Below, in pieces: positions 58,344-59,276 of a stretch of DNA of 64,000 nucleotides. Under the pieces are notes generated by a model. It made no database searches and was not told where the DNA came from. It saw only the letters and a list, made by a program, of their open reading frames with translations. The translations under genes and the position numbers were made by a program. This stretch comes from Chloroflexota bacterium (GTDB lineage Bacteria; Chloroflexota; Chloroflexia; QHBQ01; JADMIH01), in assembly GCA_039932335.1 (NCBI GenBank), contig JBDTQH010000014.1, positions 45,118-109,117 on the forward strand, given 5' to 3'. How positions within the stretch are numbered: the first letter of the stretch is position 1; each line of letters begins with the position of its first letter.

Positions 58344-59276
58344 ATGCCCGTTTCCCTGCCCGAAAGGCTGCAAGGCTTGGAAGAGGCCTTGCGCGAGAGT
58401 GAACTGCTCAAGCCGGGAGCAGTAAAGTCATTGGTGAATCAACTATCGGTGGCAACGCGCCGCCTTGACTTTTCGGCAAGCAGGCCGAATGCAGTTGTGC
58501 TACTAACCGGGGCAGCTGCGCGCAACAGCCGGCAACTATCGGAAGTGCTGGCCGGCGCGCTCTTCGGATCGACTGAGCGCGTGGTGGAGATAGATTTTTC
58601 GCGCATGATCCAGTCGCACGATACGACAATGCTGATCGGCGCATCTCCTGGTTACGTCGGCTACAGCAACGCACTGCCAATCCATACTCTGCTCCAGATG
58701 CCGTGGAGCGTGCTGCTGTGTGAGAATGTACAGGCAACTCACCCGGCCGTGCTCGGTATCCTGACACAGGCACTGGCCACTGGAGTAATGAACGACGCTC
58801 AGGGGAAGAAGATCTACCTAAGTGATACTGTGGTGGTGCTGACCGCACCCTCAGATGCACCGAACGAGTCTGGGGCGGTTAGCCTCTCGGGCGGTAGGGA
58901 GCAGGAAAGCTCATTGTCGACCGTCAGCGAATTGCTGCGAGGGGGCGGGCTGGATGTGAGATTGCTCGACCAGTGCGATCTGGTTTGCCACCAAGTCCCG
59001 GATAACGCCGGGAGCTTGCGAGCCTGGGTAACCAAGCAGTTCCTGCCCGAACTGGCTGACCGGTACCGCAAGCATGGGGTACAGATAAGCTGGCACCTAA
59101 GCATCGTTGATTGGCTGCTTTCAGGGACCGAGCCTACCACGCGGAGTACAGTTCGGCTGAAGGTAGACAGGGTGATGAACCCAGCTATCATGCCTTACCT
59201 GCCTGCCCGCCTGAGAGATGTGAGAAAGCTCAGCGTATCATACGATGGGCAGATAATCGTCTCACAGGGTAAATAG
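58344..59276 (+). CDS. ClpA/ClpB D2-like AAA+ domain protein with degenerate Walker A/B (pseudo-ATPase) but conserved GYVG pore-loop region
   Basis: Aligns with ClpB D2: GPTGVGKT becomes TGAAARNS, LLDEVEKAHPD becomes LLCENVQATHPA, TSN becomes TAP, while GASPGYVGY and the HP..L.ILLQ.L..G..TD.QG....L.DTVV block are conserved. Confidence 0.55.
   Translation: MPVSLPERLQGLEEALRESELLKPGAVKSLVNQLSVATRRLDFSASRPNAVVLLTGAAARNSRQLSEVLAGALFGSTERVVEIDFSRMIQSHDTTMLIGASPGYVGYSNALPIHTLLQMPWSVLLCENVQATHPAVLGILTQALATGVMNDAQGKKIYLSDTVVVLTAPSDAPNESGAVSLSGGREQESSLSTVSELLRGGGLDVRLLDQCDLVCHQVPDNAGSLRAWVTKQFLPELADRYRKHGVQISWHLSIVDWLLSGTEPTTRSTVRLKVDRVMNPAIMPYLPARLRDVRKLSVSYDGQIIVSQGK

Follow-up and report, generated by a model that had tools for sequence, protein, structure and literature searches.

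Introduction

In several two-ring AAA+ proteins only one ring works as a motor. The D2 ring of NSF and the D1 ring of PEX1/PEX6 are non-catalytic, with the other ring as the motor, and the D2 ring of NSF still binds ATP. In ClpA and ClpC, an IGF or LGF loop located after sensor-1 is the docking site for ClpP (PMC10149685). ClpI was recently described as an additional double-ring Clp class, with a variable N-domain and with subtypes that do or do not carry LGF (Jiang & Schmitz 2023, PMC10149685). Its ATPase modules are intact, its M-domain has the length of that of ClpC, and it is confined to Actinomycetota (PMC10149685). Sequence analysis led to the definition of TY-Chap1, which is predicted to be a peptide-binding chaperone, in systems centred on ADP-ribose and ADP-ribosyl-glycohydrolase, and for the superfamily of TY-Chap1, YbjN and type III secretion system (T3SS) chaperones, binding of peptides or of partly unfolded clients has been proposed (PMC9503650). 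This text deals with a stretch of 64,000 nucleotides from a Chloroflexota bacterium (GCA_039932335.1, contig JBDTQH010000014.1, positions 45,118 to 109,117 of the forward strand), here called the window. At 58344..59276 it contains an open reading frame (ORF) for a 310-residue homologue of D2, the second AAA+ module of Clp/Hsp100 proteins, followed by a TY-Chap1-like gene. This ORF is read here as the 3' part of a truncated gene, derived from a family of two-ring Clp proteins in which a degenerate D2 follows an intact first module, D1. The parent family appears to be undescribed in the literature searched, which holds no description of an Hsp100 pseudo-ATPase or an inactive D2.

Identity and motifs of the D2 open reading frame

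The 310-residue ORF is a clear homologue of the Clp/Hsp100 D2 module. It matches Pfam AAA_2 with an E-value of 3.3e-13 and 50.4 bits (cut-off 27), and it matches D2 sequences of solved ClpC, ClpB, and Hsp104 structures in the PDB with E-values from 1.4e-20 (best) to 1e-19. The NCBIfam models for ClpV1, ClpB, ClpK, and ClpA align to it over their D2 part only. An AlphaFold2 model was built from a shallow alignment, with a mean predicted local distance difference test score (pLDDT) of 71.6 and a predicted template modelling score (pTM) of 0.61. This model superposes on crystal structures of the isolated second nucleotide-binding domain (NBD2) of ClpB (4fcv and 4lj7), with a Foldseek E-value of ~1e-19 and template modelling (TM) scores of 0.65-0.69. 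As the superposition extends over 310-326 columns, both the large and the small subdomain of D2 are present. The substitutions in the motifs were read from HMMER and MAFFT alignments, which are gap-free through the motifs. The features of the ORF are as follows.

58344..59276, + strand: D2 ORF of 310 residues with an ATG start; degenerate Clp/Hsp100 D2 with large and small subdomain, read as the 3' part of a truncated gene for N-domain, D1, and inactive D2
58506..58529, + strand: Walker A remnant TGAAARNS, residues 55-62 (canonical GPTGVGKT); P-loop Lys and Thr gone
58638..58664, + strand: pore-loop region GASPGYVGY, residues 99-107, kept; invariant columns in the alignments
58713..58733, + strand: Walker B remnant LLCENVQ, residues 124-130; Asp replaced by Glu, catalytic Glu replaced by Asn
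58842..58850, + strand: sensor-1 remnant TAP, residues 167-169 (canonical T(S/T)N); Asn replaced by Pro
58851..58928, + strand: loop at the position of the ClpP-docking [ILV]GF, residues ~170-195, tripeptide lost and SGAVSLSGG present; disordered in the model, with pLDDT <50 at 171-195
58971..58973, + strand: Arg-finger position, Gln210; canonical NR replaced by DQ

In the Walker B region, (L/F)DE(I/V)E is changed to CENVQ, and VLLCEN faces V(I/V)LFDE in the alignments. With Walker A, Walker B, the sensor-1 Asn, and the Arg finger all lost, the ORF is, judged by its sequence, not a catalytically competent AAA+ module. Nucleotide binding is not expected either, because the Lys and Thr of the P-loop are gone. 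An earlier note, written from the letters of the window, had recognised the homology to the second module of ClpB/ClpA, had named TGAAARNS, LLCENVQ, and TAP as destroyed motifs, and had noticed that the GYVG pore-loop region is kept. All of this is borne out by the database matches and alignments, and the change from NR to DQ at the Arg finger is a lesion beyond those it had listed. The Foldseek match to ClpB NBD2 agrees with the Clp D2 fold that it had expected, while an alignment error or a fold other than AAA+ is excluded by the gap-free motif alignment and the AAA+ fold of the model.

The parent family

Besides the window copy itself, a word-index search returned only three close relatives, P0002 (58% identity) as well as P0003 and P0004 (both 42%), all of which show the same degenerate motifs. 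A profile of these four proteins was used for a deep search against 1.84 billion representatives of 50% clusters, yielding 972 matches at E<=1e-30, the best 150 of which were used to count motifs. Of these best 150 representatives, ~125 lack GK[ST], the DE of Walker B, mostly the Asn of sensor-1, and the Arg finger. The pore-loop signature G-x-P-P-G-Y-V-G-Y is kept in most of them. The canonical motifs GPTGVGKTE, LLLDEIE, MTSN, and NRID occur only in deep-search matches weaker than E~1e-54.

Most proteins with the inactive D2 are 700-750 residues long, typically ~725, and the inactive module forms their C-terminal half. Among the representatives of at least 650 residues, D1 has a canonical P-loop in 89 out of 90 according to one tally, while a second tally with slightly different counting found the D1 Walker A in 84/85 and the D1 Walker B in 83/85. 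The Pfam architecture of the family is AAA, AAA_lid_9, and AAA_2, and a Clp_N-like region is visible at the N-terminus. From the PDK motif of the D1 lid to the first strand of D2, the family has ~83 residues, compared with 209 in P0006, a ClpB fragment with an M-domain; this spacing indicates that the family has no M-domain. Against a full-length family profile, built from 74 full-length proteins and comprising 729 positions, the window ORF scores 340.9 bits (E 2e-102) over positions 389-719, and it shares with the family the inactive state of Walker A, Walker B, and the Arg finger. Relatives thus share the inactive motifs, as the earlier note had considered, and they are mostly full-length proteins with an intact D1. 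On sequence evidence, the inactive motifs are a family-wide trait, which was inherited and did not evolve in the window copy for a decoy activity.

Members, which public sources name only "ClpC" or "AAA family ATPase", stem from metagenome-assembled genomes (MAGs) of Chloroflexota, Armatimonadota (Chthonomonadales), and Coriobacteriia, and also from metagenomes. A profile search of the genome contigs with the family alignment retrieved no family loci; the universal GAPPGYVGY drew canonical ClpB and ClpC at 26-37% identity. Short database entries were considered as natural D2-only proteins and rejected, since they start at arbitrary points inside D1 or D2. The best candidate of this kind, P0023, begins at nucleotide 2 of a 979-bp contig and is a contig-edge fragment.

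Some members deviate from the common architecture. In P0049, a region resembling a beta-propeller or WD40 domain replaces Clp_N, P0085 has two D1 modules ahead of the inactive D2, and P0029 carries an N-terminal extension of ~350 residues with a Cys-rich start. Directly below the family in the search ranking are P0133, P0134, P0142, and P0152, two-ring Clp proteins of 637-727 residues without an M-domain and with intact D2 motifs. Most of them carry an LGF or VGF loop, the loop of P0142 being AGF. These four may represent an active sister group of the family.

The tripeptide [LIVM]G[FLMY] follows sensor-1 in 104 of 132 members with an inactive D2 (79%), namely as IGF in 36, LGF in 35, and VGF in 17, and the rest mostly have xGF. 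With this loop, the family looks like a group of ClpP-partner unfoldases in which D1 would be the only motor and D2 would form a passive channel and docking ring. No clpP gene adjoins the sampled family loci. The window copy has lost the tripeptide, and so has its closest counterpart at locus L002, which has GGIGPSL in the same loop.

Truncation of the gene in the window

The sequence directly upstream of the ORF records what the gene has lost.

58266..58343, + strand: in-frame, start-less stretch left over from the last (C-terminal) part of the D1 lid and from the D1-D2 linker, VAHALARRNVLVDIETAEAVAKRLTG; 26 codons (78 nucleotides), found by tblastn and profile

The frame is open from 58248, and no ATG, GTG, or TTG precedes 58344. 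Alignments to the window start at 58266, both in tblastn with P0003 and P0004 and in blastp with many full-length members. P0003 and P0004 carry a D1-lid remnant (FPDKAVDLLEQ...) in front of D2. When the 32 codons 5' of the ATG are included, the family score rises by 32.3 bits, compared with 2.6±2.1 (maximum 12) for shuffled sequences and 0.4-3.3 for the other frames. The match of the window begins at position 389 of the full-length profile, and a six-frame search of all 64 kb gave no match to positions 1-388, which cover the N-domain and D1. A frameshift was considered instead of a truncation and rejected on these grounds, as positions 1-388 are unmatched in any frame either upstream or window-wide. 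Homology stops at ~58260, where a divergent DUF4829-like gene starts. Over 57496-60153 and 57808-59967, respectively, the window is matched at 100% identity by two Logan contigs, which come from different sequencing runs. Because both span the junction, it is real and not an artefact. On these alignments, the window gene is 5'-truncated. The earlier note had called the protein stand-alone, without N-domain or D1. This is correct for the content of the ORF, but as a native form it does not hold, because the 26 upstream in-frame codons, with their match to the last part of the D1 lid, mark the missing part as a truncation.

The signals for expression of the remaining ORF are poor. At the ATG at 58344, AGG lies only 1-3 nucleotides upstream, and at TTG 58386, the start used by NCBI, GAAGAGG lies 2 nucleotides upstream; both are poor ribosome-binding sites. 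No promoter-like site was found 5' of the D2 ORF, with promoter and terminator counts of the scan at chance level.

At the related locus L001, the clp-like gene (5000..7811, coverage ~1.06) comprises Clp_N, D1 with GKT, and the inactive D2, with TY-Chap1 in series. It is broken by many frameshifts across the N-domain, D1, and D2, which could be due to sequencing error or to a genuine pseudogene.

The TY-Chap1 partner gene

The D2 ORF is followed by a small gene with good translation signals.

59290..59763, + strand: TY-Chap1/YbjN-like gene for a predicted peptide-binding chaperone of 157 residues; Pfam PF22551, E-value 6e-10; 13 nucleotides 3' of the D2 ORF

Its Shine-Dalgarno sequence, GGAAGGAG, is strong and is separated from the ATG by a 7-nucleotide spacer. 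A promoter-like site, TAGACA-16-TATCAT (10/12), lies within the 3' end of D2 at 59164..59191 (+), ~100 nucleotides 5' of the TY-Chap1 gene, although the count of such sites is not above chance. A TY-Chap1 gene is also found downstream of the clp-like gene at L001, L002, L003, L088/L089, L090, and L091. One ORF lies between the two genes at L088/L089, and the stop of the clp-like gene overlaps the TY-Chap1 start at L090 and L091. In P0068 (L087, 3044..5728), N-domain, D1, and inactive D2 are naturally fused to a C-terminal TY-Chap1/YbjN-like domain. In total, 6 of the 8 informative intact loci show the linkage. In the literature searched, no link between TY-Chap1 and Clp was found, and papers mentioning both YbjN and ClpB were irrelevant.

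A word-index search with the TY-Chap1 of the window returned only itself and the copy of L002. Compared with the partners of intact loci, the TY-Chap1 of the window and L002 shows 27-34% identity, as opposed to 41-54% for D2. Among the intact loci, TY-Chap1 is generally conserved to a similar degree as D2 and, in several pairs, to a higher one. As TY-Chap1 is disproportionately diverged in the window and L002, a functional shift or a relaxation at the base of this clade is suggested. The TY-Chap1 proteins of the window (59290..59763) and L002 (2035..2499) have in common an N-terminal extension of ~13 residues and the core motif MGGLAxFSINAKxEIxLTASLMGD, neither of which is present in the partners of intact loci.

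Genomic neighbourhood

Two genes are located directly upstream of the D2 remnant.

56639..57757, + strand: tyrosine recombinase of the phage-integrase family, 372 residues; Pfam PF00589, E-value 2.2e-21; 0.6 kb upstream of the D2 ORF
57888..58274, - strand: divergent DUF4829-like gene, 123-128 residues; ATG probably at 58259, with the 5' end of the gene directly at the truncation junction (~58248-58266)

The tyrosine recombinase may have caused the rearrangement in which the N-domain and D1 were lost. The region from 55.9 to 58.1 kb has a mosaic composition, with a low GC content of 0.44-0.47 at 55900..56700 and 0.60-0.65 in the integrase gene itself. No tRNA genes and only short direct repeats at chance level, none of them att-like, were found around the integrase. 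The wider neighbours belong to an ordinary chromosome and encode a nitronate monooxygenase, a Cys/Met pyridoxal phosphate enzyme, and a helix-turn-helix (HTH)-nSTAND1-WD40 protein; no signature of a phage or defence island is present among the neighbours in the window. The last of these genes (60021..63947, -) is convergent with the TY-Chap1 gene, and its product of 1308 residues combines an HTH-like region at the N-terminus with an nSTAND1 NTPase domain (1.3e-114) and many WD40 repeats. A TIR-WD40 protein is encoded near the intact family locus L091. At L088 (GCA_964532665.1), the family locus is flanked by genes for vWA, NYN, Tubulin_2, and CAP-domain proteins (1..4700 and 7398..9255), and three small unannotated ORFs surround TY-Chap1.

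Fate of the truncated copy

The ancestor of the locus would have been a two-ring Clp/Hsp100 gene encoding a Clp_N-like domain, a working D1, no M-domain, and an inactive D2 with GYVG. In its product, D1 would supply all of the unfolding power, D2 would serve as the passive channel and ClpP docking ring, and TY-Chap1 may act at the D2 end as an adaptor that holds clients or as a regulator. A rearrangement beside the tyrosine integrase would then have taken away the N-domain and D1 in the window, leaving 26 start-less D1-lid codons, the whole D2, and TY-Chap1. The 310-residue product, if made, is probably an inert or residual remnant, a decaying passenger upstream of the intact TY-Chap1 gene. 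Without a motor, an N-domain, a nucleotide site, and the xGF tripeptide, it would be unable to unfold proteins or to dock ClpP in the usual way.

The only known members of the clade are the window and L002, and both are truncated, with matches beginning at profile position 389 and 429, respectively. L002 has an in-frame TAG (1872..1874) near the 3' end of its D2, and homology to the window continues past it. A fragment resembling a DDE transposase lies upstream of its truncated D2 (357..800, -). Since the start-less upstream codons in the window are still well conserved, the truncation in the window would be recent relative to the divergence from L002 (synonymous divergence, dS, ~1.9).

Several observations weigh against a mere remnant. 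The 310-codon frame is fully intact and scores 1.10 bits per position, compared with 1.17±0.10 for intact members, on a profile made from full-length proteins only and without the window copy. Between the window and L002, the ratio of nonsynonymous to synonymous substitution rates (dN/dS) of D2 is ~0.16, albeit with a saturated dS and a history that perhaps partly predates the truncation. The block common to both loci comprises exactly D2 and TY-Chap1, with unrelated flanks. Both members thus combine a D2-only gene with a fast-diverged TY-Chap1, and the truncated pair could be maintained. A CTG at 58248 may serve as a non-canonical start. In addition, TY-Chap1 does not adjoin the clp-like gene of two more distant family members among the 8 informative intact loci.

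The most serious alternative builds on these observations and is possible, although we hold it to be rather unlikely. Here, the truncated D2 would be expressed and selected as an ATP-independent partner of TY-Chap1, keeping the parental contact between the two proteins without the motor and acting as a scaffold, a holdase platform, or a client-sequestering regulator. The intact frame with a family-profile score in the normal range and the low dN/dS, accompanied by a similarly low proportion of nonsynonymous differences (pN) in TY-Chap1 between the window and L002, are in line with this, as is the retention of precisely D2 and TY-Chap1 in both clade members. The stronger divergence of TY-Chap1 is as expected after a functional shift, and the natural fusion in P0068 argues for a physical link. 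Neither candidate start, however, has a good ribosome-binding site or promoter, and the conserved but start-less D1-lid codons indicate a recent truncation, leaving little time under selection on D2 alone. L002 is broken at a different point and contains a premature TAG. Only two members of the clade are known, and every other short entry checked proved to be a fragment. A wider version of this idea is unlikely. In that version, the D2-only gene and the diverged TY-Chap1 form a maintained ATP-independent scaffold or chaperone module, perhaps a holdase or a Clp regulator, and the parent family is a new class of single-motor Clp proteins with a pseudo-ATPase ring for ClpP docking and an adaptor similar to T3SS chaperones.

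The earlier note had instead suggested an inhibitor, adaptor, or decoy of Clp chaperones, as would be plausible in an element that hijacks host proteostasis or defends against it. According to this explanation, a stand-alone Clp pseudo-ATPase evolved for the purpose in a mobile or defence element and acts on the host ClpB or ClpC via its pore-loop region. Partial Clp homologues are known as decoys in principle, for example mycobacterial ClpC2. The loss of the ATPase motifs with retention of GYVG would fit, as would the integrase 0.6 kb upstream and the transposase fragment upstream of the D2 of L002. The inactivity, however, comes by descent from full-length relatives whose D1 is active and was not selected in a stand-alone protein, and the gene is visibly truncated. 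The pore loop of AAA+ proteins faces the inside of the hexamer channel and does not form a binding surface on the exterior. The xGF loop, the sole family feature with which ClpP might be targeted, is lost in the window copy, and neither start has a convincing ribosome-binding site or promoter. The supposed element amounts to a lone integrase in an ordinary chromosome with metabolic neighbours and no phage or defence island. Both suggestions are therefore unsupported, and a purpose-evolved decoy is very improbable.

A split gene is similarly far-fetched. In this case, the half encoding the N-domain and D1 would be located elsewhere in the genome, and its product would assemble in trans with the D2 half into a two-ring machine. 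The intact and conserved D2 and the retained TY-Chap1 with its good translation signals are compatible with such an arrangement, but the 64-kb window holds no homologue of the N-domain and D1, a proper start and ribosome-binding site are lacking in the D2 half, and xGF is lost. No member consisting of N-domain and D1 only turned up, but the searches used a D2 query and were blind to such proteins. Finally, an assembly artefact, with unrelated DNA joined at ~58260 in a chimeric MAG contig, could be imagined from the metagenomic source and the mosaic composition at 55.9-58.1 kb, but it is scarcely credible given the two contigs from separate runs that are identical across the junction. The reading as a truncated and probably inert remnant is retained.

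Comparison with known systems

The window ORF itself matters little, since the reading as a stand-alone decoy fails and the ORF is a gene fragment. It does, however, expose a sizeable unnamed branch of Clp/Hsp100 proteins with a conserved pseudo-ATPase second ring, comprising at least ~125 50% clusters among the best 150 matches. If the inferred mechanism is true, nature would have tested in this branch how far a double-ring unfoldase can get with a single motor, and chaperones of the TY-Chap1 type would gain a concrete partner. Annotation pipelines label such fragments "AAA family ATPase" and flag neither the inactivity nor the truncation.

Class I Clp/Hsp100 proteins combine an N-domain and two AAA+ modules in one polypeptide. 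The full-length relatives have this composition, whereas the window ORF has D2 only. The parent family resembles ClpC and ClpA in its Clp_N-like domain, its D1 with AAA_lid_9, its AAA_2-type D2 with GYVG and small subdomain, and the [ILV]GF after sensor-1. With its length of ~725 residues and no M-domain, it is particularly similar to ClpA. In ClpC and ClpA both rings are active, whereas the D2 of the family lacks Walker A, Walker B, sensor-1, and the Arg finger. Beyond this, the window copy has lost the N-domain, D1, and the xGF tripeptide, and shows no [ILV]G[FL] docking loop. The best sequence and structure matches of the window ORF are to the NBD2 of ClpB and Hsp104. ClpB, on the other hand, has a long M-domain, no LGF, and an active D2, in contrast to the family with no M-domain, an xGF loop, and an inactive D2. 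ClpI was rejected as the identity of the family because, judged from its description, it differs in the D2 motifs, which are degenerate in the family, and in the M-domain, which is absent there. The distribution differs as well, as ClpI is found in Actinomycetota only and the family in MAGs of Chloroflexota, Armatimonadota (Chthonomonadales), and Coriobacteriia.

NSF, PEX1/PEX6, and the Clp-like plant proteins SMAX1/D53 likewise have one motor ring and one structural ring, but they belong to different clades; SMAX1 is a weak PDB match to the 310-residue ORF. The D2 of NSF binds ATP, whereas the P-loop Lys and Thr are gone in the inactive D2 of the family. The downstream gene, with its match to PF22551, belongs with the superfamily of TY-Chap1, YbjN, and T3SS chaperones (CesT, YopN-chaperone). 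Unlike the TY-Chap1 systems described around ADP-ribosyl-glycohydrolase, the copy in the window adjoins a Clp-like gene.

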